A program made the position numbers and the translations under genes. The notes under the pieces are model-generated. The model did no database searches. It was not told where the DNA came from and worked only from the letters and a program-made list of their open reading frames with translations. This document shows positions 37,355 to 58,621 of a DNA stretch of 64,000 nt, one piece after another (the first letter of the stretch is position 1; the number at the start of each line of letters is the position of its first letter). Location of the stretch: the IMG/VR virus record IMGVR_UViG_3300028833_003520. The stretch is one strand, 5' to 3'. Origin of the DNA: a virus. Lineage: Duplodnaviria > Caudoviricetes.

Positions 37355-37390
37355 TTGACTTTCTCCATATATGGTGTTATAGTGTTTTTA
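37355..37390 (+). promoter_or_regulatory. Cargo-operon promoter, copy 1
   Basis: TTGACT-ttctCCATATATGGtgt-TATAGT-gttttta; near-identical to 54114 and 58593. Confidence 0.85.
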
Positions 37391-37427
37391 TAGTATAAAC
37401 ACAACAGTAAGTTGGGAGGAAATAAAT

Positions 37428-38183
37428 ATGGTCGAGATAATTGATAAGAACGATGCACCTGAAGCAGTCAAGAATGCGAAGGTAGTAGGTGGTTCAACAT
37501 TTTTCGATGCCGACACTTCGGAAAGATTTGAGGCTGAGCCTAAATCTGTAAAATCGACTGGTAAGACGATTTCGAAGGTCGTAACAAGAGAGAATATCGA
37601 AGAGGCATACGCATCTGCACAGCAGATTGCGGTTGATGCTCAGACTCCCGAAGATGTGAATAAGGGACCTCTCAAGGCTTATGAAGGTAAGTATGATTAC
37701 AAATACTTATCTCGTGAGACTGTCGATATTATGCATAAGAATGCAAGTACAGGAGCAATTTCTGCAAAGGAGTCGCTTAACTCCGTACCGTATGCAATTA
37801 AGTTAGGTACTGCTATTAGTTCGGAGAACTATGGTACAGCAGTTCTTACAGGTATTCAGATGTTACCTGGCGTTATTCGTCAGAAGACCGCACAGTATAA
37901 GAATATGATTGGTTCGGTTGAAGGTTATCAGTCTTATAAAAAGGATATCGAGGGTCTTTCGAAAGAAGAGAGAAAGTTGGCTCGTAAAGAACTGGCAGAA
38001 TGTCAGGTTAAGGCTTTAGAGCATCTCGATTCTGCTGATAAGCAACTCTTCAAGGAGAAAGCGGCTCAAGGTATCGACAAGGGCGTTGAGGCTCTTGCAA
38101 GCAGAGCAGACCGTGTAAAGAGGGCAGAATCCATCGCTCCGTCTGGTGCGTCAGCAGATTATGGCGTAGAACTCGGAGGCTAA
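37428..38183 (+). CDS. Hypothetical protein
   Basis: RBS GGGAGG; first gene after the cargo promoter. Confidence 0.8.
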   Translation: MVEIIDKNDAPEAVKNAKVVGGSTFFDADTSERFEAEPKSVKSTGKTISKVVTRENIEEAYASAQQIAVDAQTPEDVNKGPLKAYEGKYDYKYLSRETVDIMHKNASTGAISAKESLNSVPYAIKLGTAISSENYGTAVLTGIQMLPGVIRQKTAQYKNMIGSVEGYQSYKKDIEGLSKEERKLARKELAECQVKALEHLDSADKQLFKEKAAQGIDKGVEALASRADRVKRAESIAPSGASADYGVELGG

Positions 38184-38184
38184 T

Positions 38185-39213
38185 ATGATTAAACACCATA
38201 AAGGACCTCTTGGGGAGTTCGATTACGATAATTCGATTTGGGAAATTAAATCGACGAGGAATGATTTTGACCCTGCTAATCCCATAATGACTATGGAATA
38301 TAAGTTGAAGGGCAATATCAATGGCTCGGAGATAGAAATACCTTATGGTCTTGTAAAAGCAGATAATCTTTTCAAAGATTGTTCCATACAGACACCACCT
38401 TCAATACCTGCAACTGTTAAAAGTTGTAGAAGTATGTTTGAAGGTTGTTCAGGACTGCGTAAGGCTCCCATTATCCCGAAAGGGGTTAAGGATTGTCATA
38501 GTATGTTTAACGGTTGTATATCGTTAAGAGAGGCTCCTCCGAAAATTCCTGACACTGTTCGGGATTGTCGTTTTATGTTTAACCTCTGTGAGAGTCTGAA
38601 GTCAGGTTCGCCGATGGAAGATACTTTACCGAATGAGCCTGTTCATTGTGACGCAATGTACTATGGCTGTACGCATCTGACAGAGGCTCCGAGAATGGGT
38701 CTGTATGTAGATTCTATGGCTTTTACTTTCAACGATTGCAAGAAGTTGAAATATCCACCTGTTCTTCCTAAAAAGGTTGAGACATTAGCAGGTTGTTTCA
38801 AGGGTTGTGAAAGACTTGAAATGGCACCAAGTATTGGTGAAGGCTGCGTTAAAATGGGTCAGACTTTTAGCGGTTGTAAGAAGTTGGTTTATCCGCCTAC
38901 AATCCCTTATACGACGAGATATATGGAAGGATGTTTTGAGGGTTGTAAGAGTTTAACAACCGTTCCTGCTATTCCACCGTCTGTGGAAACAAGTTCTTCT
39001 CTTACGGTGTTTAGCGGATGTTCGCAGAATGTTCAAGACAAAGGCGAATGGGCATTCAAGAACAGAGGTTGTGATTTTGAGCAGTATGGCGTTGTTTCGA
39101 AGCCCAGTCACCGTATCAGAGGTGATGGTAAGAGGAAACTTCCTTCGGTTGATACGAAGGACTCAGATGAGCCAAATAAGAACCCGAATGATGGCGATTT
39201 TGGTAATTCATAA
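38185..39213 (+). CDS. Cytoplasmic BspA/DUF285-like leucine-rich repeat protein with RKLP C-terminal tag
   Basis: About nine 22-aa MFxGCxxLxxxPxIPxxV repeats; no signal peptide. Confidence 0.8.
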   Translation: MIKHHKGPLGEFDYDNSIWEIKSTRNDFDPANPIMTMEYKLKGNINGSEIEIPYGLVKADNLFKDCSIQTPPSIPATVKSCRSMFEGCSGLRKAPIIPKGVKDCHSMFNGCISLREAPPKIPDTVRDCRFMFNLCESLKSGSPMEDTLPNEPVHCDAMYYGCTHLTEAPRMGLYVDSMAFTFNDCKKLKYPPVLPKKVETLAGCFKGCERLEMAPSIGEGCVKMGQTFSGCKKLVYPPTIPYTTRYMEGCFEGCKSLTTVPAIPPSVETSSSLTVFSGCSQNVQDKGEWAFKNRGCDFEQYGVVSKPSHRIRGDGKRKLPSVDTKDSDEPNKNPNDGDFGNS

Positions 39214-39238
39214 TATAGAAAGGAACTGGTAACGTAGT

Positions 39239-39625
39239 ATGGATAAGAAAGAAGTCAAAAAGAAGATGGCTCAGATGAGCAAGGCAGAGCAACAGCAGGC
39301 TGAAGCCGAGGCAAAGAAGGCTGAAAAGAAGCGTAAAGAAGCCGAAGCACGAAGGAATGCCGAAGTCAAAAAGAGACGCATTGCAGAGCAACAGGCTCGT
39401 GAAGAGGCAGAACGCAGACAGAGAGCCGAAAGGTTTGCCGAAAGTCAGGGCAAGACTGTCGATAGCAAGCCTGCCCGTATAAGAGGCGAAAAACCTGAGG
39501 CGAATGTTCGTAATCGTCGTACAGAGGCGGCTAATGAGCGTCTCAAGATTGCAAAGATTGAGAATAATAAAGCCGAGCAGGAAGCCGAAGGCGAGCGTGT
39601 AAAGATAGGCAAGCGATACGTTTAA
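39239..39625 (+). CDS. Highly charged helical protein
   Basis: K/E/R/A-rich; RBS GAAAGGA. Confidence 0.7.
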   Translation: MDKKEVKKKMAQMSKAEQQQAEAEAKKAEKKRKEAEARRNAEVKKRRIAEQQAREEAERRQRAERFAESQGKTVDSKPARIRGEKPEANVRNRRTEAANERLKIAKIENNKAEQEAEGERVKIGKRYV

Positions 39626-39660
39626 GTAGAGTTTGATATATAACTCACTGGTGGGTTTTA

Positions 39661-39732
39661 CATATATGGGGAAAGTGGTGGTACTCTGTATCGCCACTTT
39701 TTCTTGATATATGAGAGTATGTGTACTATAAT
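39661..39732 (+). promoter_or_regulatory. Operator, terminator-like hairpin and promoter of the relaxase operon
   Basis: CATATATGGG; GAAAGTGGTGGTAC/GTATCGCCACTTTT hairpin; TTGATA(39704)-TATGAG...-TATAAT(39727). Confidence 0.75.
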
Positions 39733-39786
39733 GGGAAACAGATAGTATAAGACAAAATAGCACACTTGTGCATTTAGGAGCAAAAT

Positions 39787-40110
39787 ATGGTACAACCACG
39801 ATGGGGCAATGAGAATCAAACTAATATGTCTTCAATGGTAGATTTTCAACGAAATCTCGAACTTACCAGAATGACACAAGCAACTCAAGCATTAAATGAG
39901 ATTGAAGAAGAGAGACTAATGTTGGAAAAGGCTCAGGCTATGAATGATATGTCTATCTATGAAGACTATATTAGACGGAGAAATGAACGGAAAGCAACAG
40001 AGCAAAACCGTTTGGCAAAAGCAAATAAAGTAATAATTATGATTGGGATTACAGTAGGAATTGTTGGCATTATACTTTTGCTTATAATGTGGGCTTTGTT
40101 TGCATATTAA
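39787..40110 (+). CDS. Small protein with C-terminal TM helix
   Basis: RBS AGGAG; hydrophobic C-terminus. Confidence 0.7.
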   Translation: MVQPRWGNENQTNMSSMVDFQRNLELTRMTQATQALNEIEEERLMLEKAQAMNDMSIYEDYIRRRNERKATEQNRLAKANKVIIMIGITVGIVGIILLLIMWALFAY

Positions 40111-40121
40111 GGAGTGGTTTA

Positions 40122-42365
40122 ATGGGTTTGAAACAATCCGTTGTAATAGTCAACGAGTTTTCTATAAAGAATAAATCGGGTAAGGGTGGTTCACGAGGTG
40201 GAACACCTGGCGACTATGTAACACGATATATGGCTCGTCCTAAAGCAACCGAGGATTTGACACCTGTAAGGTTACAGGACACAGACAAGTTCATTACGAG
40301 ATATATGGCTCGTAAGGAAGCGTCTGAGCAGTGCATTTCAGTCGAAGACGAAAAGGAGCGTATGCGTGAGGCTCAGAAGTTCGGCGGCATAGCCTTTGGT
40401 TATGGCGACGTTTCTTTGTCTGACAGTAAACTTCGTTACGCCAGTAAGGATATACAGAAGGAATTCGAAAGGGGAAAGACGGTCTTAAAGACAGTCTTGT
40501 CTTTTGACGAAGAATACCTCAAATCTAACGGAATCGTTGACGAAGACTTCGAGTTCAAGGAACGAGGAGACTATCGTGGTAACATCGACCAAATGAAACT
40601 CCGTATGGCTATAATGAATGGCTTGGATAAAATGAGCAAAGACTATGATGACTTACGTTATGTAGGCGTTATACAGGTCGATACGGCTCATATACATTGC
40701 CATTTGGCTATGGTGGATGCAGGTCGAGGTAACATTATGCCTGACGGCACGCAAAGAGGGAAACTGTCTGAAAAGAACAAGCGTGATTTGAGGAGAGGAA
40801 TTGATAATTTCCTTGACGAGAAGAAGAAAGTCTTAATGATGACGAGTAATGTCTCAAGAGACAAGAGGAATGCCTTGTGCTATATCAAAAAGTTTACTCA
40901 TAAGACGATGGATGAACACGGTACTCCGCAACTTCTTATGGCTTGTCTTCCTGAAGACAAGAATCTGTGGCGTGCATCGACTAATCGCAAGGAGATGAGA
41001 AAGGCTAATGCAATAGTCAGAGATTATGTAGAAGAGGTATTGAAACAGCCCGATTCAGGTTATGAAGAGGCTATGGAGTCCATACTTCAGTATGCAGATG
41101 AGCGTCGTAGCCGTGAAGACTTGGACAACAAAGAGTATCGTATGTTGTGCAAAAATGGTCGAGAGCAGTTGGTCGAAGACTGTATGAACGGTGTTTATGC
41201 AGTATTGAAGCAAATTCCTGATGAAGAGCGTACTGTTAAGACACCTCTGCTTGATACGATGAGTATGGATTACGAAGAACTGAGCACGAAGGCACAAAGT
41301 GACGAGATGTCGATGTTCGGTTTCAGACTTCGTTCATATAATAACCGTCTGGAATATCATAAGAAGGAAATGAATAAATACCACGAGTATGTACGAATGT
41401 ACGAAGATACTCCTGATGCGGCACGTTCTTCTAAAGTGCTGTATGACTTCTTCAAGGAAGAAGAGGAGTATAATCAGAAACTCGTCGGTAAATATAGGCA
41501 TTTCCTTTCTTTCGCAATCCCTGATGAGAAATATGAGGACGATTTTACAGAACTAATGCAGTATCGTGGAAGGATGACCAATTTAAGACGATTAAAGGAC
41601 GATAAGTCCTTAAAGCGTATGAATCCTGACCGTGCTGAAGAAGAAGGACGTAAAATCTACGGACAAGCAGGCGGTAGATATGCTGCGACAAATCCAAATA
41701 TTCTTGAAACCCGACTCATCAATATGAGATTGAGATACAATCGAATGGAAGAGGATTTTAAGATGAAACTGTCCGAATACGGAATGGTAATGGGTATTAA
41801 GGACGGTAAGATGGTTGTTGAAAGGGGAGAACAGTTCCCATTTGATGATGTTAAGGCTTTAGACTTACATCACCTCGGTTACGATTGGCAGGAAGATATT
41901 ATTATTGCAAAACGAAATGTTGATAACTTCATTGAGGCGACAGACAATCGTTATGAGAAGTATCAGGCTGCAGTACAGTATCTTAAAGATTCTGACCAGG
42001 AGTTGATGATAGACCAGTTGCCTACTAAGGATATTCAGGCTATGAAGGAACTCGCAGACAGTTTGAGAACAAACCCTGTCTTGCCGAAGAGTGATGTCTA
42101 TGAAGGATATAAGCACGACGGTCGTACTGTAAGCCTTGATTTCGATTACGGCGAGGATATGCAACGAGCAGTTAAGATGACCGTTAGAAGCGTCGCAAAT
42201 GCTCCAGATTTCGACGAGAGGCGTTCTACGAGGTCTGTACCTGTTATTCCTGCTGAAGCACCTATAGAGCCTTCTGGAAGGCGTACAGGACGTAATGTAC
42301 CTGATGTTGGTAATAAAAGCCCTGATAACGATTTGGATTCTGTCAGAAGACAGAGAGGCGAATGA
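40122..42365 (+). CDS. Relaxase, MobL-like HUH family
   Basis: RBS AAGGAG before MGLKQS; N-terminal YVTRYMAR tyrosine motif (duplicated), KTVLSFDxxYL, VIQVDTAHIHCH HUH motif. Confidence 0.8.
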   Translation: MGLKQSVVIVNEFSIKNKSGKGGSRGGTPGDYVTRYMARPKATEDLTPVRLQDTDKFITRYMARKEASEQCISVEDEKERMREAQKFGGIAFGYGDVSLSDSKLRYASKDIQKEFERGKTVLKTVLSFDEEYLKSNGIVDEDFEFKERGDYRGNIDQMKLRMAIMNGLDKMSKDYDDLRYVGVIQVDTAHIHCHLAMVDAGRGNIMPDGTQRGKLSEKNKRDLRRGIDNFLDEKKKVLMMTSNVSRDKRNALCYIKKFTHKTMDEHGTPQLLMACLPEDKNLWRASTNRKEMRKANAIVRDYVEEVLKQPDSGYEEAMESILQYADERRSREDLDNKEYRMLCKNGREQLVEDCMNGVYAVLKQIPDEERTVKTPLLDTMSMDYEELSTKAQSDEMSMFGFRLRSYNNRLEYHKKEMNKYHEYVRMYEDTPDAARSSKVLYDFFKEEEEYNQKLVGKYRHFLSFAIPDEKYEDDFTELMQYRGRMTNLRRLKDDKSLKRMNPDRAEEEGRKIYGQAGGRYAATNPNILETRLINMRLRYNRMEEDFKMKLSEYGMVMGIKDGKMVVERGEQFPFDDVKALDLHHLGYDWQEDIIIAKRNVDNFIEATDNRYEKYQAAVQYLKDSDQELMIDQLPTKDIQAMKELADSLRTNPVLPKSDVYEGYKHDGRTVSLDFDYGEDMQRAVKMTVRSVANAPDFDERRSTRSVPVIPAEAPIEPSGRRTGRNVPDVGNKSPDNDLDSVRRQRGE

Positions 42366-42679
42366 TGGAACTGACCAAGGATGCCGCAAAGATTTGTGCC
42401 ATAATTACGGGAGTGATGCTGACCGCAGTTACTTTTGCTTTTGTTATTTTTGTGTTCCGTTTTCAAACTGATAATCAGTATGTAGAACAGTTGGTTCGGG
42501 CAGGAGCACAAATAAGCGACGATATGACATATATAGACGCTCGTGAACAATTAGACAAATCGTCTTCTATTCTTATGGGGTTCGGTGTGTTAGAGTTGTT
42601 ATTGACATCTATTTTTGGTATTTGCTTAAGAGCAGGATTTGTACCTAAGAAGGAGACGAAAAAAGAATGCGAGCGTTAG
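42362..42679 (+). CDS. Small two-TM protein
   Basis: ATGA overlap with the relaxase gene. Confidence 0.65.
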   Translation: MMELTKDAAKICAIITGVMLTAVTFAFVIFVFRFQTDNQYVEQLVRAGAQISDDMTYIDAREQLDKSSSILMGFGVLELLLTSIFGICLRAGFVPKKETKKECER

Positions 42680-43011
42680 TTAATTATGTGGACGCAAATG
42701 ACGGTTTGACAGAAGCAAGGGTTGTAAATGTGTTGACCGTAGGTCGTAACAACATAGGACCGAAAGGTTCTGCATTTACAATCCGCATATCAGACGGATT
42801 ATTGATTTTTAATCATAATGAAAGTCTGATACACAATGATACTTATAAGAAAGTTCTTCAGGAACTTCTTAATAAGGGATATGTTGATTTGACAGCGTAT
42901 GGCGAGTTTGTTGATAAACATACAGCAAGGCGTGAATACGAGGCAGATGGCATATCAGTATTTATACCTAATAGGGAGGACTTCAAAAATGAGCAGAATG
43001 ACCGAGAATGA
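42667..43011 (+). CDS. Hypothetical protein
   Basis: RBS AAGGAG; part of an overlapping gene chain. Confidence 0.65.
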   Translation: MRALVNYVDANDGLTEARVVNVLTVGRNNIGPKGSAFTIRISDGLLIFNHNESLIHNDTYKKVLQELLNKGYVDLTAYGEFVDKHTARREYEADGISVFIPNREDFKNEQNDRE

Positions 43012-43213
43012 GAAAGTGCTTGATTCGTTGAAAATGAATCCTAATCAGGATGAATGGGAATTAACAACGGATGTTAACACAGCAAAATGTATGCTTTTAG
43101 CAGACATTTCGAAGAGTCTTGCAATCCTGGCAGACAAGGTTGAAGAAGAGCGACGCAACAGAGACGGTGCTTCGGCATTTATGAATGACAAGCGTTATGG
43201 AAACGGACAGTAA
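42989..43213 (+). CDS. Hypothetical protein
   Basis: RBS GGGAGG before MSRMTE. Confidence 0.6.
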   Translation: MSRMTENEKVLDSLKMNPNQDEWELTTDVNTAKCMLLADISKSLAILADKVEEERRNRDGASAFMNDKRYGNGQ

Positions 43214-43226
43214 GGAGTGATTATGT

Positions 43227-43784
43227 ATGCCAAAGAAGCGATTGAATAGTCCTGTATATACTTTAGGACGAATGGTTCGCTGCAGAATGACAGAGGATAG
43301 TACCTCTGGAACTCTGTATTCTTATGGACGATACAAAACCAAAATAAAGGTCGAAGATTTGCCTGAAGACTATATCAAATGTCACGCTCGTGTATTTTGG
43401 TATTTATTTGGTTTTGTTAAAACATCAGGTGTTAAAAGCGTTGCTTTTACTTATTGTAAGGAAAATCACGTTTTTAAGGATGACTATCTTTATATCGGCT
43501 ATCAGGGTCCCTTGGTTCCTGTATATTCGGAATATTTAGAGGGGTATATATGCGATTATAAAGATGGTGAACATAGCAGTCTTTGTGTCGATGGAAGCGA
43601 CATAGTAAGATTGGTATTGGCTATCGAGAAGTATTCTCCTGATGTAGATACATCTGAGGTTAGAAGACTTATTGACGAGAAGATAGAATATCTTCGTACA
43701 AAAGAGACGGATTACTATAAGAGTTGCTTCAACACAACAGAAAAGATAGATATCTTTGAGTTGTGGGGAAAGGATGGTTATTGA
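43227..43784 (+). CDS. Hypothetical protein
   Basis: RBS AAGGAG; 185 aa. Confidence 0.7.
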   Translation: MPKKRLNSPVYTLGRMVRCRMTEDSTSGTLYSYGRYKTKIKVEDLPEDYIKCHARVFWYLFGFVKTSGVKSVAFTYCKENHVFKDDYLYIGYQGPLVPVYSEYLEGYICDYKDGEHSSLCVDGSDIVRLVLAIEKYSPDVDTSEVRRLIDEKIEYLRTKETDYYKSCFNTTEKIDIFELWGKDGY

Positions 43785-43785
43785 T

Positions 43786-43998
43786 ATGTTTGGATATTGG
43801 ATTCAGATTATTGCCCTGGTAGCGTTTGCAGTTGGATATCTTATCTTCATAGGTTGCGGAGTGATGAACGCAGCAAGCGAGAAGATTAAGTTTGTTCCCA
43901 ATGATGGTGTTTACGATGTGTCAGCCTGCATTGGTGGACTCAGCGTAATAATGTTTCTGATTGGCGTAGTTGTTAATCACGGATTGTTCTTTATGTGA
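43786..43998 (+). CDS. Small two-TM protein
   Basis: Start MFGYWI; hydrophobic. Confidence 0.55.
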   Translation: MFGYWIQIIALVAFAVGYLIFIGCGVMNAASEKIKFVPNDGVYDVSACIGGLSVIMFLIGVVVNHGLFFM

Positions 43999-44005
43999 GG
44001 TGAAT

Positions 44006-44353
44006 ATGGATAACTGGATGCGAAACCTTCGAAATACTATTACTGTGTGGGGTCCAAGTCTTATCTGGACAATAATCTGTTTGGTGATTGTTTTAACACT
44101 CATTATTTTGTGTATTATTACACTTGTTCGTTTGTGTAAAGTTTTAGGAAAAATTCAAGGATTTTTTGAAGAACTTGAAGCAAATGGAGCCACGCTTGCA
44201 CAAGTAACTTATGCAAAAGCCGTAAGTCTTAAAACGATTGCAGAAACAACCGATGATATTGCAGATGAAACTGAAGGTTTGAAAGTTGTTACTGAGGCAA
44301 TTGGTTATGAAGATATGAGTGTTTATGAAAATTATAAGAAAGGGCGTGACTGA
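44006..44353 (+). CDS. Single-TM protein
   Basis: RBS GAGGTG before MDNWMR. Confidence 0.6.
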   Translation: MDNWMRNLRNTITVWGPSLIWTIICLVIVLTLIILCIITLVRLCKVLGKIQGFFEELEANGATLAQVTYAKAVSLKTIAETTDDIADETEGLKVVTEAIGYEDMSVYENYKKGRD

Positions 44354-44354
44354 T

Positions 44355-44639
44355 ATGAGCAGGCAAAGGCGGAGCATAAAAGCCACACCAAATTGGATAA
44401 TACCTGATACTGTTGAAAGAGATAAAACTTTAGTTATAAGAATTGTAATTATTGTTGTTTTATTAAGTATTCTCATCCCTATATTAACTATGTGTGGTTT
44501 TGAATATAATATGAATATTGCTCAAGGCGGTAAGCAGACAATTGAAGACCTTATGGGTTCTGGTAAGACAGATACAAGTGCAACAGGTGTACAACCTTGG
44601 GAAACAGTTCAAGGAGCAACTGGTCAAACAATTAAGTAA
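44355..44639 (+). CDS. Single-TM protein carrying a copy of the pilin's NIAQGGKQTIEDL segment
   Basis: 44514-44589 aligns with 30082-30154. Confidence 0.65.
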   Translation: MSRQRRSIKATPNWIIPDTVERDKTLVIRIVIIVVLLSILIPILTMCGFEYNMNIAQGGKQTIEDLMGSGKTDTSATGVQPWETVQGATGQTIK

Positions 44640-44660
44640 TTTAGATTATAATAAAACAAT

Positions 44661-45533
44661 ATGGATGCAGTTAAGAAACAATTAAAAATTTGGAGAATTG
44701 ATAATATTATAATTGCATTTGTAATGTCGGTTACAGTTAGTGCTTTTTGGGAAGTCAGAATGCACGGTTTTAGTCTATTTATAGGATTTTTCTTTTTAAT
44801 TGCAGTGTTAATCACTTTATGCAAAGCATATAAGTTTAATCCTTTCGTATCATTTGAACCTATTGTATTCATAATTGATATTACGAATAAGCGAAATGTT
44901 GATTATGATGAATACATAAATAACTGGGTTTTTAATAATGAAAATTACGATTTTAAGATTGAAAGAGAATCACATTTATCAACTTGGGAGAGTAATTGTA
45001 AGGATATAATTGACAGAGAAATATTCTTTAAGAAACATAGATTAAACCAGTATGCGATTGTGAAGCAGCAGGTGACCGATTATCATTATCCAATATTTCA
45101 ATGGAATTTTGTTCGTTATCATACTCGATATCGACAAGTTAATTATCAACGATATTCTTATGCTGTTGATGATTTGGATTATATTGTACAAAAATCGTAT
45201 ATTGATACTTGGGAATTAGATGCTATATGTGAAGAAAGAATACGCCAAAATGAAGAAAGTTTCGAAAGAACGCAACGCTTTTTAGAAAATAATAAGTATT
45301 GGCTTCGTTCTCGTTCTCGTTCGGTAGGACCTAAACAGCGTCAGCGTATTTTGAGAAGAGATAACTTTACTTGTCAATTATGTGGTGCAAAAGGTCCTGG
45401 TGCTGGTGGTAGTGCTGAATTAGAAGTTGACCACAAATTACCTTTTAGTTTAGGTGGAAGCGATAAAGATAGTAATTTGTGGACATTATGTAAAGATTGT
45501 AATAGAGGGAAGAGTAATGATTATATAGATTGA
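44661..45533 (+). CDS. Membrane-anchored HNH endonuclease
   Basis: Two N-terminal TMs; C-terminal RD..TCQLCG...EVDHK.P...GG....NLWTLC..CN. Confidence 0.8.
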   Translation: MDAVKKQLKIWRIDNIIIAFVMSVTVSAFWEVRMHGFSLFIGFFFLIAVLITLCKAYKFNPFVSFEPIVFIIDITNKRNVDYDEYINNWVFNNENYDFKIERESHLSTWESNCKDIIDREIFFKKHRLNQYAIVKQQVTDYHYPIFQWNFVRYHTRYRQVNYQRYSYAVDDLDYIVQKSYIDTWELDAICEERIRQNEESFERTQRFLENNKYWLRSRSRSVGPKQRQRILRRDNFTCQLCGAKGPGAGGSAELEVDHKLPFSLGGSDKDSNLWTLCKDCNRGKSNDYID

Positions 45534-45564
45534 CGCTTAAGAAGCGATATACTATAATAATTAC

Positions 45565-45635
45565 AATTCTTTTCGTCATTAGTTCGCTGGTCAAGATAGT
45601 TAAACAGAATCACGTTTCGTGGTTCTGTTTTTCTT
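45565..45635 (+). ncRNA. Putative ~70-nt small RNA
   Basis: TTGACG(45530)-17-TATAAT(45553) promoter followed within ~45 nt by the terminator AAACAGAATCACG-TTT-CGTGGTTCTGTTT-TTC; no ORF. Confidence 0.4.
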
Positions 45636-45678
45636 TGTTCAGATATATTTATCGTACCATTAAAAGTACATAAATCTC

Positions 45679-45707
45679 TTGATATATGAGGAGATTCGTG
45701 CTATAAT
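45679..45707 (+). promoter_or_regulatory. recD2 operon promoter with operator half-site
   Basis: TTGATA-TATGAG...-TATAAT, 17-bp spacer. Confidence 0.8.
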
Positions 45708-45747
45708 ACGAATGTACTTAACCTATTGGCAAATGGAGAATATATCA

Positions 45748-50065: not shown

Positions 50066-51259
50066 ATGGGAATTTTGGTGACTGAAGATTTGATGTATAA
50101 CAATTGTGAAAATATGTATTCTCGTTTAGTTGAAACTGGTGAGTGGAACATTATTCGTGAGTGGGATTTTGAAGCCAATGGTTTTTCTTTGAAGGATTTA
50201 GAAAGCGTTTGTTTTAGACACGATTTCTATTTTAGATGTCCGAATGGGCATTTGTTTAAGGATAGTTTTTGGCATACTGGTTGTCCTGAATGTAAGACTT
50301 ATTTTGATATGAGATTTGGTCGTAGAAATAAGTTAACAATGGAGTTTGATGCATTGAAAAAGCGGTATGGCGAAGAGTCATTAAATCCTTTGATTTATAC
50401 GAATGAATCTGCTTATAATGAGTATATTGCTTTGATTGAAAAATATCCACAGTGGGCGTGCAAATATATATTGCCAACAGCCCCTTTTTCAGAAATGAAA
50501 AAGGTATATCCTGTTGCTGATGAGTTTATTACTCAACTTATAATGAGCGATGATGGTCATTCTGTTACGAATTCAGGCATTGGTACATACTTAATTGGCG
50601 GAAATAGCAGAAAGTATGATACATATATGAGGCAGTATGTGCGTATTTTATATCAAGATGAAATAAAATTACCTTTCAAAATTGCTCGTCGGTTGTTAAG
50701 TCATAATACACAGTGTTATGGTGATGACTATGAAGCCGAAGCAAATTCTGCTGCTCTTGAAGAATGTGATAAAAGTTGTTCTGTAAAAGAGCACGTTATT
50801 GAGTTTTCATCTATTTTCTTAAATCGTTTGGAAAATCTTATAGTGTCAAGTGATAAAATACAGTCTAATGTGCCATTATGTGATGCATTACAGGAATTGT
50901 ATGATACGATGAACGATAGTTCTATGAAGCCGAATAAAAAGTGGCTTGAGTTGGATAATCTTGAGTTCATTAAGAAGTGTAATAAATATGAACACAATAT
51001 TCGTAAGGCTGTAGAATTTTTGAATGAAAATCCTAAGAAATCGTCAAAGCCGTTTCGTGTAGTAGATTTGAAATTACGTCAAAAGATACTCAGACGTGAC
51101 AACTTTACGTGTCAACTTTGTGGTGCTAAAGCACCTGATGTCAGGGTAGAGGTTGACCATAAAGTTCCTTATAGTAAAGGCGGTGAGACAGTAGAGAGTA
51201 ATCTTTGGACACTATGCTGGGAATGTAATCACGGAAAGAGTAATAATTATATAGATTGA
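50066..51259 (+). CDS. Zinc-ribbon + C-terminal HNH endonuclease
   Basis: EWDFEAN...CPNGH...CPEC; HNH domain highly similar to that of 44661..45533. Confidence 0.8.
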   Translation: MGILVTEDLMYNNCENMYSRLVETGEWNIIREWDFEANGFSLKDLESVCFRHDFYFRCPNGHLFKDSFWHTGCPECKTYFDMRFGRRNKLTMEFDALKKRYGEESLNPLIYTNESAYNEYIALIEKYPQWACKYILPTAPFSEMKKVYPVADEFITQLIMSDDGHSVTNSGIGTYLIGGNSRKYDTYMRQYVRILYQDEIKLPFKIARRLLSHNTQCYGDDYEAEANSAALEECDKSCSVKEHVIEFSSIFLNRLENLIVSSDKIQSNVPLCDALQELYDTMNDSSMKPNKKWLELDNLEFIKKCNKYEHNIRKAVEFLNENPKKSSKPFRVVDLKLRQKILRRDNFTCQLCGAKAPDVRVEVDHKVPYSKGGETVESNLWTLCWECNHGKSNNYID

Positions 51260-51267
51260 GGTGTAAT

Positions 51268-51543
51268 ATGACACAGACAATTGAGGAAATCAGAAAGCAA
51301 TACGGTAAAGATAAGAACGCTCTTCTTGAGGCTTATGTTAATAAGATAAAAGAGCGTTTGAAAGAAATTCATCTTGACGGTCTCGTTAGACGTAAAGAAG
51401 ATGGAAGAATCGGTTGGTTGGAAACCGATTATTATGGAGCGTTGTGTTTTTATCCGAGAACAAAGGAAGGCAAGAAGAGTATTAACCAAAATGGAACTAC
51501 GTATCACGTAGAAACGTCCTTTGAGCCTTATGTCGAAGAATAA
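51268..51543 (+). CDS. Hypothetical protein
   Basis: RBS GAGGTG before MTQTIE. Confidence 0.65.
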   Translation: MTQTIEEIRKQYGKDKNALLEAYVNKIKERLKEIHLDGLVRRKEDGRIGWLETDYYGALCFYPRTKEGKKSINQNGTTYHVETSFEPYVEE

Positions 51544-51544
51544 A

Positions 51545-52009: not shown

Positions 52010-52171
52010 ATGGCACGCCAAAAACCTATTAAGAATGAACTTGAGAGAATAATAGAGGAAGAAGGATATCGCCCTTGTTTATTTAATCACGAGTGTTTTG
52101 GGTTTGCGTGTTCTAAATATCGTGACTGTGAGTTGCGAGGTGTTACAGTGCGAGGTAATAAGAAAGAATGA
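52010..52171 (+). CDS. 53-aa Cys-containing protein (not in the ORF track)
   Basis: RBS AGAAAGGAG; MARQKPIKNEL...C..C..C..C; ATGA overlap with the next gene. Confidence 0.6.
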   Translation: MARQKPIKNELERIIEEEGYRPCLFNHECFGFACSKYRDCELRGVTVRGNKKE

Positions 52172-52527
52172 TAATGTTTTGTATATGCAATGATTGTGGT
52201 TCACAAACAGAGTTGGATTGCAATGTTCACATAGGTTTTTTGAGAGGTACACAATTTGAGTACCTCTTATCTAATCCGAATTTCACGGAAGAACGCTTTC
52301 AAAATTGGTGGAAAGTGATGTGGGATAATCATCAGATTGCTTGGTGCGAAGACCAAGACGTAATTAACCGTTTCGGCGGTGATGTTGCTGCTTACGGCGG
52401 TACATACGATGAGGAAACTATGAGAATGAAAAATCCGACGGATTTATTCTTGGATGAAGTTGATAGATACACTCAGAATGGGTGTGTCTGTCCAGTATGT
52501 GGTTCGAAAAATAACCGATTGCGTTGA
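52168..52527 (+). CDS. Zinc-binding hypothetical protein
   Basis: CNDC near the N-terminus and CPVC near the C-terminus. Confidence 0.65.
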   Translation: MIMFCICNDCGSQTELDCNVHIGFLRGTQFEYLLSNPNFTEERFQNWWKVMWDNHQIAWCEDQDVINRFGGDVAAYGGTYDEETMRMKNPTDLFLDEVDRYTQNGCVCPVCGSKNNRLR

Positions 52528-52541
52528 AAGGGGCGTTTACA

Positions 52542-53180
52542 GTGAAGAGTCTTGACAAAGTTTTTTATCGAAACAAAACAAAAAGAACACCAAATACTAT
52601 GCTTGATAGGTTCTTTTGGCTTAATCCAAATCTGTCAGGTGAAAAGGCTTGGGGTGATAGTTCAAATGTCACCTACGAGAATATCTATAAGATAGCGACT
52701 TTTGTAAACGATTTTCACGGGCAGGCTTGGGGAACATCACTTCATAGAAGTGTATTCAAGATTGCAGGGTATAGGTGTCTTTGCCAAATCGAAACACCAT
52801 ATCTTTTGACGTGGAAAGAGTCCTTAAATATACATAAACCCGAAGATGTAGAAATGCGTATTCGGTTTATTTTTAATGATGACCATTATGCAAGTCTGCT
52901 TGATTTTGGTCGTAGTTATTTGATTGCTCATATAGGTGAACTGCCACAGGAAACGGAAGCCTTGCGAGAGTTTCTTGACGAGCGTATTGCAGAATGTGCT
53001 CGTCAGTTCTGTAAAGAACTTCTGTGGATTCTCGGTAATATTACCGAGGAGAAGACTGGATATCGTTCACCTGAAGAGTTAGACGAAATCAAATGCAGCG
53101 AAGAGTCGATTACAGAAGAATATGTTCGCTTATTTGGTCAGAGAGTTAAGGACGATGGGAGAGTAACAGACGATGCCTGA
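52542..53180 (+). CDS. Hypothetical protein
   Basis: Long ORF; GTG start after AAGGGG (start uncertain). Confidence 0.65.
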   Translation: MKSLDKVFYRNKTKRTPNTMLDRFFWLNPNLSGEKAWGDSSNVTYENIYKIATFVNDFHGQAWGTSLHRSVFKIAGYRCLCQIETPYLLTWKESLNIHKPEDVEMRIRFIFNDDHYASLLDFGRSYLIAHIGELPQETEALREFLDERIAECARQFCKELLWILGNITEEKTGYRSPEELDEIKCSEESITEEYVRLFGQRVKDDGRVTDDA

Positions 53181-54054
53181 TTATACATATGAGATATGGG
53201 GTGGTAAAAAGATTTATGCGAGGAGCCATAGTCTTGAAATAATTACTGAAAGGTTGCAGGAATTATGGAACACTCCTGTTGGAAGTAGGCAAGAAGCCTT
53301 TACAATAAAGCGAGTGGAAAAACAACACCCACATATGCCAGGGCATTCTTTAGAGAAAAATAGTTTAGCCAAGAGGTTTCCGAAGGTTGCTAAACTGTGG
53401 CATCCAACAAAGAACGATTGCCTAACACCGTCTGATGTTTTTCCTTATAGTAAAACAAAGGTATGGTGGCAATGTAAAAAAGGACACGAGTATTTTATGG
53501 CTATCGACAGTATGGTAAGTGGTGCGAAATGTCCTTGCTGTACTCTTAGGCAAGCGGTGCCAGGAGAGACTGATTTGGCTACAACGCATCCTGATGTTGC
53601 CAAACTATGGCATCCAACAAAGAATGGCGATTTAACACCATTACTTGTGACCGAGAGGTCTGCAGAGAAAGTTTGGTGGCAGTGTGAAAAAGGTCACGAA
53701 TGGGAAGAGCGTATAAATGTTCGTGTTTCAAGAAAGTCCAGTTGCCCTTATTGTAGCGGTACGAGGCTTATAAAGGGCGAGAATGATATTGAAACGCTTT
53801 ATCCCGAAATCGCAAAAGAATGGAAAGATACGAGGCTGAACGGTGGTCTGAAACCCTCAGAATGCACGGAACGTACATTTAAGAATGTATGGTGGCAGTG
53901 CAGCAAGTGTGGAACAACTTATCAGGCTTCGGTCTTTAGACGAGTGAAGGGGTGGCAGAAGTGTCCGACTTGTTATCCTAATGAAGATAATATAATTTCT
54001 CCGAAACGAGCGTATGATGGTTATACGACAATAAGGAGAAAATCAAATAAATAG
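53173..54054 (+). CDS. Protein with three tandem zinc-ribbon (WHPTKN...VWWQC...CPxC) repeats
   Basis: Three repeats; same domain as 14152..14850. Confidence 0.8.
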   Translation: MPDYTYEIWGGKKIYARSHSLEIITERLQELWNTPVGSRQEAFTIKRVEKQHPHMPGHSLEKNSLAKRFPKVAKLWHPTKNDCLTPSDVFPYSKTKVWWQCKKGHEYFMAIDSMVSGAKCPCCTLRQAVPGETDLATTHPDVAKLWHPTKNGDLTPLLVTERSAEKVWWQCEKGHEWEERINVRVSRKSSCPYCSGTRLIKGENDIETLYPEIAKEWKDTRLNGGLKPSECTERTFKNVWWQCSKCGTTYQASVFRRVKGWQKCPTCYPNEDNIISPKRAYDGYTTIRRKSNK

Positions 54055-54068
54055 TTAAAAAGTTAAAT

Positions 54069-54106
54069 GAAAACCTCAAATGTTAAAATTTGGGGTTTTT
54101 CTTTTT
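54069..54106 (+). terminator. Intrinsic terminator
   Basis: GAAAACCTCAAAT/ATTTGGGGTTTTT plus T tract. Confidence 0.75.
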
Positions 54107-54113
54107 GATTTAA

Positions 54114-54149
54114 TTGACAATCTCCATATATGGTGTTATAGTGTTTTTA
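54114..54149 (+). promoter_or_regulatory. Cargo-operon promoter, copy 2
   Basis: TTGACA-atctCCATATATGGtgt-TATAGT-gttttta. Confidence 0.85.
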
Positions 54150-54182
54150 GATTGCAAAACTATGCATAGAAGGAGATTTGCT

Positions 54183-55127
54183 ATGTTAATTGGTCCTGAT
54201 TTCAAATCGTCTAATACGCCTGACGCAATAGTGCGTTGGTACGATAAAGCCGATGTATTTCGTGTAAATAAAGAGGGCGATATTCTTCAGGTTGATTCTG
54301 ATGCGAATGCAAAGCAGCCTGGTTATTTTATACGTATGTGCATATCTGATATGACAGAGAATAGTGAGCGTTCTTATTTAAGATTTGGATTGTTTCATAC
54401 GGATGCTCCTGATGAGCCTTTGTTTATGGGTGCTCCGTTGACAGGATTGCCTGCTAATGCAATGAAGGAATTGTTAGTGACGGAAGGCAAAATCAACGAC
54501 AACGGTAAACAGTTTCTTAAGTATTTCAAGGCAGACTGTGATAACAATCAATCTGTTATTAAGGGACAGTATAAGACTGCAAAAGCCTATCACGATTTTG
54601 TTACTAAGCGTGAAGGCGAGGGTGTTTATGATTATGGTTGTTATGATATGTCAGATGAACTCGGACAGTTTTCAGACGTAGTTGAGAAGAATAAACATAA
54701 ACATCCATTTGAGTATGGATTTATCAATCTTTCAGATAAGGAAGCAGACCAATTAGGTATTCCTCATAATGAAGTATCATCTGCAGAACTTCTTTATGAG
54801 ATACCATACAATAGGAAAGATAGGGTTCGTTTGTTTGCGTCTATGAAGGCTCCTTTAGAGGGAGAGTATGAGAGAGATAGACAGTTTGTTCCTGTATCTG
54901 AATTAGGCAAGGATAAAGAGTTATTAGCGTGGCAGATGGCAGTGGATTATTATCAGATTTATTGTTCAAAGATGTCTCATCGAGTTTGTAATACATCTAA
55001 TTTTAGCCTTATGCCTGATTCTGTAAAGAATGAAATTCAAGAGCAAGAACACGCTGAATCAAAAGAAAGACGGTTGCCAAATGTTCCTGAATCACAGGAA
55101 GATAATCAAACACAGTTAGGAGAATAA
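54183..55127 (+). CDS. Hypothetical protein with RRLP C-terminal tag
   Basis: RBS before MLIGPD; N-terminal domain similar to the C-terminal domain of 55989..57263. Confidence 0.8.
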   Translation: MLIGPDFKSSNTPDAIVRWYDKADVFRVNKEGDILQVDSDANAKQPGYFIRMCISDMTENSERSYLRFGLFHTDAPDEPLFMGAPLTGLPANAMKELLVTEGKINDNGKQFLKYFKADCDNNQSVIKGQYKTAKAYHDFVTKREGEGVYDYGCYDMSDELGQFSDVVEKNKHKHPFEYGFINLSDKEADQLGIPHNEVSSAELLYEIPYNRKDRVRLFASMKAPLEGEYERDRQFVPVSELGKDKELLAWQMAVDYYQIYCSKMSHRVCNTSNFSLMPDSVKNEIQEQEHAESKERRLPNVPESQEDNQTQLGE

Positions 55128-55129
55128 AA

Positions 55130-55231
55130 ATGATTATTGTTTTTGAAGAATTACAAGTTAGTTCAAGTGATGGTGATTATGTTCCCACTGATGAGGAATT
55201 AGCAGAGTTATATAATGATGTAGGAGAATAG
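55130..55231 (+). CDS. 33-aa acidic peptide (not in the ORF track)
   Basis: AGGAG RBS; MIIVFEELQVSSSDGDYVPTDEELAELYNDVGE; exactly fills the gap between two genes. Confidence 0.55.
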   Translation: MIIVFEELQVSSSDGDYVPTDEELAELYNDVGE

Positions 55232-55235
55232 TATT

Positions 55236-55985
55236 ATGGGTATTGGAACACCTTATGGTTACAATGGTGAGATAAAACGGCTTTATGATAAAGACGATAA
55301 GACTCCATCATATATAACACCAACTTTTATGCAGAATAAAACATTGGGTGATATTCAGACGTTTGTTCAAGATGATACAAGTAATATAAGGAGTGATAAG
55401 ACAATGGCTAATAACAAGAAGAAAGCACTGAAGAAGCAGACAGTTATCGTTGATAAGAACGATAAGAAGACAATCGAGATACTTAAAGAACAAAATATCA
55501 ATGTGGTCGAAGCATCACATTCGGATTTTGTTAGAATGAAGAAAGAGGCTCAGATGTCGCCTTTGAAGAAGGCAGGCGAGGTAGCGAAAACGGTTCTTGA
55601 ACCGAAGCCTATTTCGGCTAAATCCATTTCGGTTGCTTCAACGCAAGATAAGCCTGCACAGTTCAAGACGGGTAATGCTGTTATTGATACGATACTTGAT
55701 AAAGACGCAGGCGTTAGCAAGGATGGTCCTACACCGTCTCTTCAGATTGGTGTCGTTAAGAAGGATGGTGCTACACCTTCTGTTGCAGAGCAACTGAAGG
55801 ATAGAGTTCCTATGCTTCACGGTCGTGAGAGAGTGAAGTCTCCTACGGAGAGAATGATTGTTCCTGCTGGGCAGTATGCTGGACCTGATGGTGATTTCGA
55901 TGGTACAACTGTGGATGTTAAGAAGCGTAAGTTACCGAATGTGCCGACGGCAAATGATGGTACACAGCAGCAGTTAGGAGAATAA
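55236..55985 (+). CDS. Hypothetical protein with RKLP C-terminal tag (alternative in-frame start at 55404)
   Basis: RBS before both ATG 55236 and ATG 55404. Confidence 0.75.
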   Translation: MGIGTPYGYNGEIKRLYDKDDKTPSYITPTFMQNKTLGDIQTFVQDDTSNIRSDKTMANNKKKALKKQTVIVDKNDKKTIEILKEQNINVVEASHSDFVRMKKEAQMSPLKKAGEVAKTVLEPKPISAKSISVASTQDKPAQFKTGNAVIDTILDKDAGVSKDGPTPSLQIGVVKKDGATPSVAEQLKDRVPMLHGRERVKSPTERMIVPAGQYAGPDGDFDGTTVDVKKRKLPNVPTANDGTQQQLGE

Positions 55986-55988
55986 TCT

Positions 55989-57263
55989 ATGGCTATTCAG
56001 AAGTACAATGGAGAGTTAGGTAAATTTGAGTATGATGATACTCAATTTGAAATATGCAATGGTGTAGTTAATGGAGACATTTATCTACATTACATCGGTA
56101 AGGAAACGGATGGCTCGAAGATTACAATTCCTTATGGCATCGAAGATGCTAATAAAATGTTTAAGGACACGGCTATCAAGACTGCTCCAACAATCCCCGA
56201 TAGCGTTAAGGTATGTAATGAAATGTTTTGCGGTTGCAATAAGTTGGTAGAGGCATCAGAAATACCGACAAATGTACGGTCTTGTTACCATATGTTTTAT
56301 GGTTGCAAATCGTTAAAAGAGCCGCCTTATATTCACGATGGACCTGAAGACTGTCGTGGAATGTTTCAGAACTGTAGCCATCTTGAAGTTGGTGCAGAAT
56401 TACCAAATACTGCAACAAAAGTTTCAATGGTTTTTTGCGGTTGTGGTTCTATGAAGAGTGCTCCTGATATGCCAAACATTATGCGTATCAAGTCTATGGA
56501 TAGTGCGTTTATGGGATGTAAATCTTTGGAAAGAGCATTTATCCCTGATGGTGTGGAAGATTGTAGTTTTATGTTTAACGGATGTACTTCTCTTAAAGAA
56601 GCACCTGCAGTACCATCGTCTGTTATTAAGACAAGTTATATGTTTGACAGATGTACTGATGAGATACAGGGTCAAGGCAAGTGGAATATTGAACATAGAA
56701 ATAGACGTGCTTCTCAGGATGAGCCGAAGGCTTTGAGAGATGCAAGGCAGGCTATGATTATGAAAAAGCAGCAGGATAAAATGCAGAGATATGTTTATGC
56801 AGAAGGTAAGACCTGTAACGGTCACGACTTGGCATTTGCTTTCGATATGTATCACGATAATGTTGTACGTTTTAGAAAGGGTAGGTTATTTCAAGAGAGA
56901 AGAGATATGAACGATAAGGGTAATTACTTTGCTCGTATAATGCAGGTCACTAACGGTGACCCGTATGCAAGAGATTCTCTTATCGTAATGTTCCACGATG
57001 ATATGCCTTCAACGCCACTTTATGCAGAGCATTTTGGCTTGTGCGATGGTACTCTTAAAAAGCATCTGTACGACCAGAATGGTTCGTTCACGAATCTTGG
57101 CAATGATATGATGCTTGATTTCTTAAATGGTGATTTTAAGAAGAATGTACCAGAGGTGGTCAAGTATAAGGATAAGTTGATGAAGAATCCGAAACTCAAC
57201 GAGCGTAGATTACCTGATTATCCTAAGGAGAATGAAGGTAATGATAAACAGTATGGAGAGTGA
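55989..57263 (+). CDS. BspA-like LRR protein + unknown domain + RRLP tag
   Basis: About seven MFxGCxxL repeats; no signal peptide. Confidence 0.8.
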   Translation: MAIQKYNGELGKFEYDDTQFEICNGVVNGDIYLHYIGKETDGSKITIPYGIEDANKMFKDTAIKTAPTIPDSVKVCNEMFCGCNKLVEASEIPTNVRSCYHMFYGCKSLKEPPYIHDGPEDCRGMFQNCSHLEVGAELPNTATKVSMVFCGCGSMKSAPDMPNIMRIKSMDSAFMGCKSLERAFIPDGVEDCSFMFNGCTSLKEAPAVPSSVIKTSYMFDRCTDEIQGQGKWNIEHRNRRASQDEPKALRDARQAMIMKKQQDKMQRYVYAEGKTCNGHDLAFAFDMYHDNVVRFRKGRLFQERRDMNDKGNYFARIMQVTNGDPYARDSLIVMFHDDMPSTPLYAEHFGLCDGTLKKHLYDQNGSFTNLGNDMMLDFLNGDFKKNVPEVVKYKDKLMKNPKLNERRLPDYPKENEGNDKQYGE

Positions 57264-57271
57264 CAATCCAA

Positions 57272-57961
57272 ATGATTAAATGGCGAAGACAAGAAGTTGA
57301 TTGCCACGAGCAACGAAGTAATTCGGTCACAACAACTATTTATAAGTTTCACTTAGGTTCAACGGCTGCTAAAGCCGTTGGTGCTTATTGTGACGAAGAA
57401 AATCATCAGTATGGTGATTTGACTTATATTACTTCGAATAGTCCTGAGATACAGTCCAACATATTCGTAGATATGTCTGTAAACGATATTCTGGATAATT
57501 TTAGCGATAATGAGAAAATGATAGATACTATCATTTACGACCAGAATAACGATTACTGTATTAGTAAGGAAACGAAGACAGGCGATAGAATGATAAAAGT
57601 GCCGTTTTCTTATTTACCTTCTGACCAATGTTATTTGGCTCATAATATCGTTTTAGCAAATATGCGTGTTTGCTTTGGCGATAGTTTTAAGTTAGATGAT
57701 AGAGTACATAACATTGCAGTTGAAAGAAGCAGTGACAAGGATTGTAGTAAAATGAATATCTCTACAAACGGTTACTGTTGGATTTCAGGTTCTCCCAGTG
57801 ATGGTAATAATTATCATAGGTATGTTGACGCATATCGTGATAACGATGAAGGAAGACATAACCTACGAGACTTTTATGATAATACACCGTCAAAGTTTAG
57901 GCGTATGCCAAGTGTTCCGATAGATAACTCGAATGTATTCCAGGCACAGGTTGGTGGTTGA
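57272..57961 (+). CDS. Hypothetical protein with RRMP C-terminal tag
   Basis: ORF coupled to the upstream gene; start at 57260 or 57272. Confidence 0.75.
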   Translation: MIKWRRQEVDCHEQRSNSVTTTIYKFHLGSTAAKAVGAYCDEENHQYGDLTYITSNSPEIQSNIFVDMSVNDILDNFSDNEKMIDTIIYDQNNDYCISKETKTGDRMIKVPFSYLPSDQCYLAHNIVLANMRVCFGDSFKLDDRVHNIAVERSSDKDCSKMNISTNGYCWISGSPSDGNNYHRYVDAYRDNDEGRHNLRDFYDNTPSKFRRMPSVPIDNSNVFQAQVGG

Positions 57962-57962
57962 T

Positions 57963-58589
57963 ATGGCTATTAAACAGTATGATGGTCAGTTAGGTAAGTT
58001 TGAGTACGATGATACAGAGTTTAAGCATCTTATTTTCAGAGACGGACGTAAGGAGTGCCTGATGTATATCGGCAATGAGTCAGACGGCTCGAAAATTAAA
58101 ATACCACAAGGAATCAAGGATTGTTCCTTTATGTTTGATAGGTGTGAATCGTTAGAGACACCACCTGTGATTCCTGAAGGTGTAGAAGATTGCAGTGTTA
58201 TGTTTTCTGATTGCAGAAACTTAGAAGTTCCACCGATTATACCTTCATCAGTAAAGAAATGCGATGCAATGTTTTACTATGCAAGGTGTATGCGTGAATC
58301 ACCTGTAATTCCTGAAGGTGTAGAAGATTGTACCTTGATGTTTCAGGGTTGTTATAATATGCGTTCGGCTCCCGTAATACCTCATAGCGTTAAGGACACG
58401 ACTTGTATGTTTTGCGTATGCTCACGTAAGGTAAGCGAAGCAGGGGAGTGGAATATTGAGCACAGAGGTCAGTCTTATGAGAGCGTTCAGAAACGCCATA
58501 GGGATGCCGAAAACAAACTCAAAGAGTTTGAGGAAAAAGAAGAATCAAGCACGAAATCTCGCCGAGGTTTTCATCTCCCATTCTTTTGA
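57963..58589 (+). CDS. Short BspA-like LRR protein lacking the canonical tag
   Basis: MAIKQYDGQLGKFEYDD N-cap shared with 55989 and 38185; four to five repeats. Confidence 0.8.
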   Translation: MAIKQYDGQLGKFEYDDTEFKHLIFRDGRKECLMYIGNESDGSKIKIPQGIKDCSFMFDRCESLETPPVIPEGVEDCSVMFSDCRNLEVPPIIPSSVKKCDAMFYYARCMRESPVIPEGVEDCTLMFQGCYNMRSAPVIPHSVKDTTCMFCVCSRKVSEAGEWNIEHRGQSYESVQKRHRDAENKLKEFEEKEESSTKSRRGFHLPFF

Positions 58590-58592
58590 GAA

Positions 58593-58621
58593 TTGACTTT
58601 CTCCATATATGGAGTTAGAAT
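58593..58621 (+). promoter_or_regulatory. Cargo-operon promoter, copy 3
   Basis: TTGACT-tt-CTCCATATATGGAG (perfect 14-bp palindrome)-t-TAGAAT. Confidence 0.85.

Follow-up and report, generated by a model that had tools for sequence, protein, structure and literature searches.

A promoter family with a palindromic spacer heads the tailed cargo genes of a rumen conjugative element

The stretch of 64,000 nucleotides that we have analysed (virus record IMGVR_UViG_3300028833_003520, hereafter "the window") represents the transfer region of a conjugative element of Gram-positive type, and it holds three copies of a single sigma-A-type promoter, which begin on the + strand at 37355 (P1), 54114 (P2) and 58593 (P3). 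In all three copies the invariant palindrome CCATATATGG is located at the identical position of the spacer, between the −35 and the −10 hexamers, and the genes that follow are variable cargo genes, most of which encode proteins with a common C-terminal tail.

In the mechanism that we propose, the three sites would be copies of one host-sigma-A promoter, each opening a terminator-bounded cassette of variable cargo genes, with the 17-bp spacer of each copy occupied by a fixed, putative palindromic operator; a dimeric DNA-binding protein, seated on the palindrome between the −35 and the −10, would block RNA polymerase, and one putative repressor, most likely encoded elsewhere on the element, would thereby switch all the cargo cassettes together. 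To a dimeric repressor that occludes RNA polymerase as the single switch for all cargo units we assign a probability of about 0.6; we infer the presence of a protein on the palindrome, its repressive effect and the timing of the switch.

The promoter block, its gene units and their protein tails

An earlier note on this DNA, made from its letters, had reported three near-identical promoters, and we have found their sequences at the positions given above. P1 (37355–37391) consists of the −35 hexamer TTGACT, a 17-bp spacer and the TG-extended −10 hexamer TATAGT, with a predicted start near 37390; P2 (54114–54150) has TTGACA, the same spacer length and again a TG-extended TATAGT, with a predicted start near 54149; P3 (58593–58629) has TTGACT and TAGAAT at the same distance, with a predicted start near 58628. 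The hexamers match the sigma-70/sigma-A consensus at 10–11 of 12 positions, the spacer measures 17 bp in 3/3 copies, and the extended −10 (TG) is present in P1 and P2. With up to three mismatches allowed, the pattern TTGACNNTCTCCATATATGG has exactly three matches in the window, where 0.08 are expected, and three matches were reached in none of 100 shuffles. The copies are separated by up to 21 kb; when they are aligned together with 100 nt of each flank, about 37 bp prove to be common and the flanks unrelated; P1–P3 are not a segmental duplication.

For a view beyond the window we have used contigs from three sheep-rumen runs that are recorded as metatranscriptomes (X4–X6, from two studies, X4 and X5 being one sample) and from a cattle DNA run (X7, about 3% diverged), whose short joints (24-nt sides) we took to be repeat artefacts and set aside. 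Loose contig ends of the RNA runs and of X7 carry at least two more copies of the promoter, with other flanks. The search for further copies that the earlier note had called for was thus productive outside the window, while within its 64 kb there is no fourth full copy; the whole element therefore has at least five copies, and the family extends beyond P1–P3 and has been retained in a diverged relative.

The tails were sought with a regular expression over all six reading frames, the strict form having two parts ([RK][RK]x(L/M)P ... xG(E/G/N)-end). In the window, strict tails occur only on the products of genes 38185–39213, 54183–55127, 55236–55985, 55989–57263 and 57260–57961, and looser tails close the products of the unit genes 37428–38183 and 58658–60163. 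The strict tail is thus found in 5/9 unit genes and in 0/50 other genes (Fisher p = 2.5e-5); with strict and loose tails taken together, the counts are 7/9 and 2/50 (p = 3.5e-6). All three paralogs of the LRR_5 family of leucine-rich repeat (LRR) proteins are inside the units (3/3). That a DNA signal independent of the protein tag groups the same genes, as had been claimed, holds in the window. The stronger claim, that the promoters drive exactly the operons with all tagged proteins and all LRR paralogs, stands for all five strict and both loose tails and for 3/3 LRR paralogs, but the word "exactly" has to be given up: two unit genes lack the full tail, i.e. 39239–39625, which has none, and 57933–58589, which has the first box only (...SRRGFHLPFF), and the relaxase (40122–42365), located outside the units and behind another promoter class, has a tail-like end (...RNVPDV...RQRGE).

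The ends of the MobL relaxase family give a first indication of what the tail may be for: homologs P0001–P0120 have a conserved two-part end, ...RTVxLDxDY...VQSVQFGE or QLE, which resembles the cargo tail RRLPxVP...QLGE. Since the same kind of tail closes the MobL-family relaxases, the cargo tail is probably a signal for the transfer machine, and it may imitate the recognition signal of the relaxase itself.

The boundaries of the units are as follows, all on the + strand. A terminator-like hairpin with a U-run (37206–37267) closes the upstream gene block of the type IV secretion system (T4SS) just before P1 (fold of 37176–37270: −35.8 kcal/mol, z = −4.7). Unit 1 (37428–39625) has three genes: 37428–38183 (251 aa, loose tail ...KRAESIAP...VELGG), 38185–39213 (a BspA-type LRR (LRR_5) paralog with a strict tail) and 39239–39625 (a highly charged long-helix protein of 128 aa, without tail); it ends at a terminator-like hairpin (39668–39704; −28.5 kcal/mol, z = −4.3), directly after which the relaxase operon has its own promoter (39704–39732), and the relaxase operon is therefore outside unit 1.

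Unit 2 (54183–58589) has five genes and is preceded by an intrinsic terminator (54069–54100), located directly before P2. Four of its genes carry strict tails: 54183–55127 (314 aa), whose true start is the ATG at 54183 and not the TTG within the −35 box, 55236–55985 (249 aa), 55989–57263 (an LRR_5/DUF285 paralog of 424 aa) and 57260–57961 (233 aa). The fifth, 57933–58589 (218 aa), is the third LRR paralog (repeat family D3), the one with the first tail box only, and its stop is located 3 nt before the −35 of P3; its tail may have been cut off by the arrival of the P3 cassette. Unit 3 is a single gene, 58658–60163 (501 aa, loose tail KKRRLPDR...ELEL), and ends at an intrinsic terminator (60190–60220). 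P3 is internal, with no terminator between units 2 and 3, so the three promoter sites make two loci; the three operons proposed before are discrete and terminator-bounded, but they are not three separate loci.

The cargo units encode soluble proteins, including the three BspA-type LRR paralogs. The first genes of units 1–3 are not paralogs of one another, and none of their products (251, 314 and 501 aa) has a DNA-binding domain; searches of Pfam, PHROGs, PDB sequences and the ESM Atlas with the cargo proteins returned only LRR_5/DUF285, for the LRR proteins.

The palindromic spacer and its likely reader

The spacer of a promoter is normally free to vary. In P1–P3 no other part is conserved as well as the spacer, which is also palindromic: the 16-nt stretch TCTCCATATATGG(T/A)GT has a single variable position among the three copies, and the variant of P3 lengthens the 10-bp palindrome to the perfect 14-mer CTCCATATATGGAG (58601–58614). 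The putative operators of P1 (TCTCCATATATGGTGT at 37362–37377) and P2 (54121–54136) are located at the corresponding positions, all on the + strand. In a literature search, CCATATATGG did not turn up as a bacterial operator. We have also considered the palindrome as a hairpin of RNA or single-stranded DNA, and rejected it: the 41-nt promoter blocks fold no better than their shuffles (z = +0.9 and −1.4). A single-strand promoter of the Frpo type was rejected on the same folds, and the hexamers are in the normal duplex register.

The palindrome has an 8-bp core, CATATATG, with seven occurrences in the window, six of them in intergenic DNA, which totals 5.5 kb and for which the expectation is 0.12; none of 2000 simulations reached six. 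The three intergenic sites beyond P1–P3 are located just upstream of the promoters of the T4SS operon and of the relaxase. Two of them form an inverted, operator-like pair of arms, TCATATATGGGGAGAA and TTCTCCATATATGA, at 29690–29728 on the + strand (an 18-bp hairpin, −28.6 kcal/mol, z = −6.7), which share 13-nt identity with P1 and P3 and are situated between a 1339-aa gene and the promoter of the pilin-like/T4SS operon (TTGACT-17-TATAAT), 20–55 bp upstream of the latter; this pair may be an auxiliary operator pair of the same regulator, a terminator, or both. The other is the operator-like ACATATATGG at 39660–39669, also on the + strand and 35 bp upstream of the relaxase promoter. Together, the extra sites may be weak auxiliary sites of the same putative regulator, or parts of terminators.

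Contigs of the RNA runs also cover the units. Such contigs do not reach transcript levels or the true starts and ends of transcripts, and DNA carry-over is possible, but their ends fit the predicted unit boundaries. One X4 contig covers 54171–60077, i.e. units 2 and 3, and bridges P3; an X5 contig starts at 54166, with adapter sequence abutting, and a contig of X6, from the other study, starts at 58644. The predicted starts, 54149 and 58628, precede these three contig starts by 15–22 nt. In X4, P1 is carried by a contig that, as judged from its length and two anchoring matches, extends from about 37344 to 39672 and reaches the terminator of unit 1. The interval 53999–54165 is without RNA-library cover in X4 and X5, which, being one sample, were not counted as evidence on this point, a gap in cover proving nothing in itself, and the X7 DNA contig runs straight through P2. 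Contig depths (27–72 for the units, 7.6 for the upstream gene) were not used to rank genes.

Several of these observations, and some further ones, weigh against control by a common repressor. No DNA-binding protein that would read the site, and no helix-turn-helix or ribbon-helix-helix (RHH) regulator, was found among the open reading frames of the window (Pfam, PHROGs, PDB), its small open reading frames or its intergenic mini-ORFs; a weak NikA/RHH-like match at 18116–18451 is more likely a relaxosome accessory protein. The 25-nt promoter pattern has no match in collections of genome, viral and metagenome contigs, which deprives the site of support from conservation across divergence, and a looser 20-nt pattern has four single matches in unrelated phyla, as many as chance would give. 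The three extra core sites could be mere parts of terminator hairpins. The P1 contigs extend upstream of the −35, by 11 nt in X4 and by 83 nt in X6, which leaves the starts unproven, and the contig depths, taken at face value, would mean that established hosts do not keep the units silent, a poor fit with tight repression.

Among other explanations, the one that fares best is that the block is a plain, strong constitutive promoter cassette that has spread together with its cargo by duplication or recombination, the palindrome being a passenger with no regulator. The lack of a regulator in the window would then be expected, as would the RNA-library contigs that cover the units in natural communities; moreover, the LRR genes are paralogous, i.e. 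duplication has occurred, and unit 1 is itself an insertion (see below). We nevertheless consider this unlikely, on three grounds: the 37-bp block has unrelated flanks on both sides, and each unit opens with a gene that is no paralog of the other two; variation falls close to the hexamers and not in the palindrome, where the sole inner change lengthens the dyad; and operator-like copies also occur outside any promoter core.

An alternative that we hold to be decidedly unlikely takes the spacer as an element of positive control, read by a sigma factor of the element, an activator or a single-chain RNA polymerase of its own. The element does have at least two promoter classes with conserved sequence outside the hexamers, but the hexamers and the 17-bp spacing of P1–P3 are already near-optimal for the host sigma-A, with two extended −10 elements, and activators of the MerR type, which bind the spacer, require one of 19–20 bp, longer than normal.

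The site might also be read by a regulator of the host, of which NrdR is the best candidate, tying the expression of the cargo to the nucleotide pool of the host. NrdR sites consist of two 16-bp boxes joined by a linker of 15–16 bp. The 16-bp box has the same C-N-ATATAT-N-G core, and TCTCCATATATGGTGT matches 6/6 conserved box positions (C4, A6, A8, T9, T11 and G13; PMC13584703), as do the others (3/3 copies); the six positions alone, however, match 23 16-mers in the window and thus have little specificity. The obligatory second box is absent, none scoring 5/6 or better at ±31–32 bp from any copy, and C5 in combination with G12 lowers the affinity 5- to 10-fold (PMC13584703), which makes NrdR a very unlikely reader. 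Least probable of all is a recombination core for the insertion or exchange of cassettes: the unit 1 insertion is flanked by CCATATATGG on the left (37365) and by ACATATATGG on the right (39660), but known sites of tyrosine or serine recombinases have longer arms, there is no adjacent recombinase gene, units 2 and 3 are without a matching site at the right end, and the fixed register inside a canonical promoter would be left unexplained.

If a common repressor does act at P1–P3, the moment of its release may be sought in the donor or in the recipient. Expression in the donor is favoured by the tail, by the possible auxiliary sites at the two transfer promoters and by the presence of the units in community RNA libraries, whose contigs lean towards expression in established hosts; zygotic derepression is favoured, by analogy, by the precedent of plasmid p576, which we discuss below. 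The two are not mutually exclusive. More tentative, and in our judgement rather doubtful, is a wider proposal: that the promoter class marks genes with relaxase-like tails whose products would be shipped through the mating channel into recipients, with the same regulator touching the T4SS and relaxase promoters through the weaker sites. If this were true, the two marks, taken together, would name every protein that the conjugation system carries as cargo.

Relation to known regulons and to other promoter classes

The closest known design is that of the Bacillus pumilus plasmid p576, which belongs to the pLS20 family, the family that defined the MobL relaxases: in its Reg576/EGeRS2 establishment regulon, four strong sigma-A promoters with the operator of an RHH repressor stand before small operons of variable content, which recipients express transiently (PMC6294495, PMC8708921). 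Both systems are Gram-positive conjugative plasmids with a MobL-type relaxase, in which several strong sigma-A promoters with one common operator head multiple operons of variable genes, apart from the transfer operon, and in both a conserved upstream sequence defines the regulon. They differ in the operator, which in p576 is a direct dual heptamer, TTATCCCnnTTATCCC, located just upstream of the −35 and sometimes downstream of the start, whereas here it would be a 10–14-bp palindrome inside the spacer. They also differ in the common C-terminal tail, for which there is no report in p576, and in the kind of evidence: transient expression in the recipient has been demonstrated for p576, and the present system is known from its sequence and from contigs. 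With up to three mismatches, the dual heptamer has seven matches in the window, where 5.3 are expected, none of them near a promoter; we have found no RHH homolog of Reg in the window and no small regulator gene behind P1, P2 or P3. With neither the dual heptamer nor a self-regulated repressor gene behind P1–P3, the locus is an analogue of Reg576/EGeRS2 and not a member of it.

The classic analogue with a palindromic operator is KorA with its operator OA, of the IncP-1 plasmids RP4/RK2, where one palindromic operator is located in the cores of several scattered promoters of a conjugative plasmid and KorA, a small dimeric repressor encoded by the plasmid, controls the OA promoters jointly (PMC2665229). 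The same trait is present here, i.e. the same palindrome overlaps the core of three dispersed promoters. The KorA system differs in its Gram-negative host, in its operator, whose sequence is unrelated and whose position is another, and in its targets, which are the replication, partition and transfer backbone and not variable cargo; KorA also works together with KorB.

In the effector regulons of pathogens, the PmrA box accompanies Dot/Icm effectors and the hrp box accompanies type III effectors. These regulons share with the present case that a promoter element and a terminal protein signal independently mark the same, otherwise unrelated genes, each predicting the other. They differ in that their promoters depend on activators or sigma factors and serve the chromosomal effectors of pathogens, whereas here the promoter is of the canonical sigma-A kind, its probable repressor site belongs to a Gram-positive conjugative plasmid, and the tailed proteins are at most candidates for export. 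The design is known in kind, i.e. a plasmid regulon with a common promoter-operator; the operator and its placement are new, and the link to a protein tail is unusual.

The establishment genes of Gram-positive conjugative elements and their control are little known, p576 and pLS20 being almost the only worked examples. On this uncultured rumen megaplasmid, two independent marks, a promoter-operator and a relaxase-like tail, pick the same variable gene set. The proteins that it encodes, cytoplasmic LRR proteins among them, are candidates for transfer or for establishment that can be put to the test, and the promoter offers a 40-bp bait with which to find the regulator. Should the tail serve as a transfer signal, the set would be the first cargo regulon of a Gram-positive T4SS to be defined by its promoter; otherwise it would be one more case of coordinated plasmid gene control, with a new operator.

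The palindrome is not a general feature of the promoters of the element. A second class (class B), cTTGATATATGAG-N11-TGnTAtAAT, has 7–8 copies in the window: at 1723–1757 before the adhesin gene, at 15499–15533 before the sortase gene, at 39698–39732 before the relaxase operon, at 45673–45707 before the helicase gene (RecD2), at 60263–60297, 63212–63246 and 63899–63933, and, as a weak copy, at 36108. The class B box also occurs in relatives, as TTGATAAATGAG three times in the locus L004 and as an identical 13-mer at 52821 of G002:C28, a contig of a Lachnospiraceae metagenome-assembled genome; its role may be that of an extended −35 common to the family, or of a second operator. Since backbone genes use class B, in relatives too, the palindrome marks a separate class, and the promoters of backbone and cargo differ. 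Next to one class B copy, contigs of two RNA runs start at 60321 and 60335, at the ATG (60334) of the DUF7004 gene and 24–38 nt after the class B −10, which points to a very short leader or to truncated coverage.

A third promoter type, at 12467–12495, has TTGACT, the spacer TTTCTCATAAATGAGCA and TATAAT, with a CTCAT/ATGAG dyad centred at the spacer position of the cargo palindrome. It heads an operon that includes HD-domain and DUF4379 proteins and is without a full tail, the product of 13699–14148 ending in ...FLGE. The CTCAT/ATGAG dyad type is also present in the Lachnospiraceae contig (at 41713 and 50111), a distant relative that shares the HD-domain protein with the window (54% identity) and has two homologs of the LRR N-domain and a homolog of gene 49697. 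That contig has, on its minus strand, five promoters of the form TTGACA-N2-13-TATATTATATATTATATA (at 50845, 43161, 40078, 39311 and 10120; loci L097–L099), in which the AT block doubles as the −10 and its distance to the −35 varies; behind them lie the genes of both LRR homologs, of a 2495-aa protein and of one with an R-E-I-P-x-V tail (50190–50753). This is suggestive, but not proof, of the same design as in the window, i.e. cargo behind one common promoter type, in a different sequence.

The conserved backbone and the insertion of unit 1

Besides the cargo units, the window holds a 3517-aa adhesin with TQ and SpaA domains, a sortase, a topoisomerase III, a lysozyme-domain protein, the MobL relaxase and a RecD2-like helicase. 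The relaxase has 1337 homologs at E < 1e-20, with relatives at 60–70% identity in metagenome assemblies; megablast of 37000–46000 against a plasmid collection gave no match. Relaxase-anchored loci from Clostridia and Actinobacteria keep the gene order 25656, 29785, 30445, 31784, 33890, 34899, 36156, relaxase. In these relatives the homolog of 36156 directly precedes the relaxase, and 37428, 38185 and 39239 are without homologs there; because 36156 and the relaxase adjoin each other in the relatives, we read unit 1 as a cassette inserted into a conserved backbone. Among 80 relaxase-anchored loci, none has CCATATATGG and none has a strict tail.

Elsewhere in the window, the 3' ends of the two HNH endonuclease genes, together with the adjoining downstream DNA, share an 89-nt repeat (45467–45555 and 51193–51281, 73% identity), which suggests duplicated HNH cassettes.

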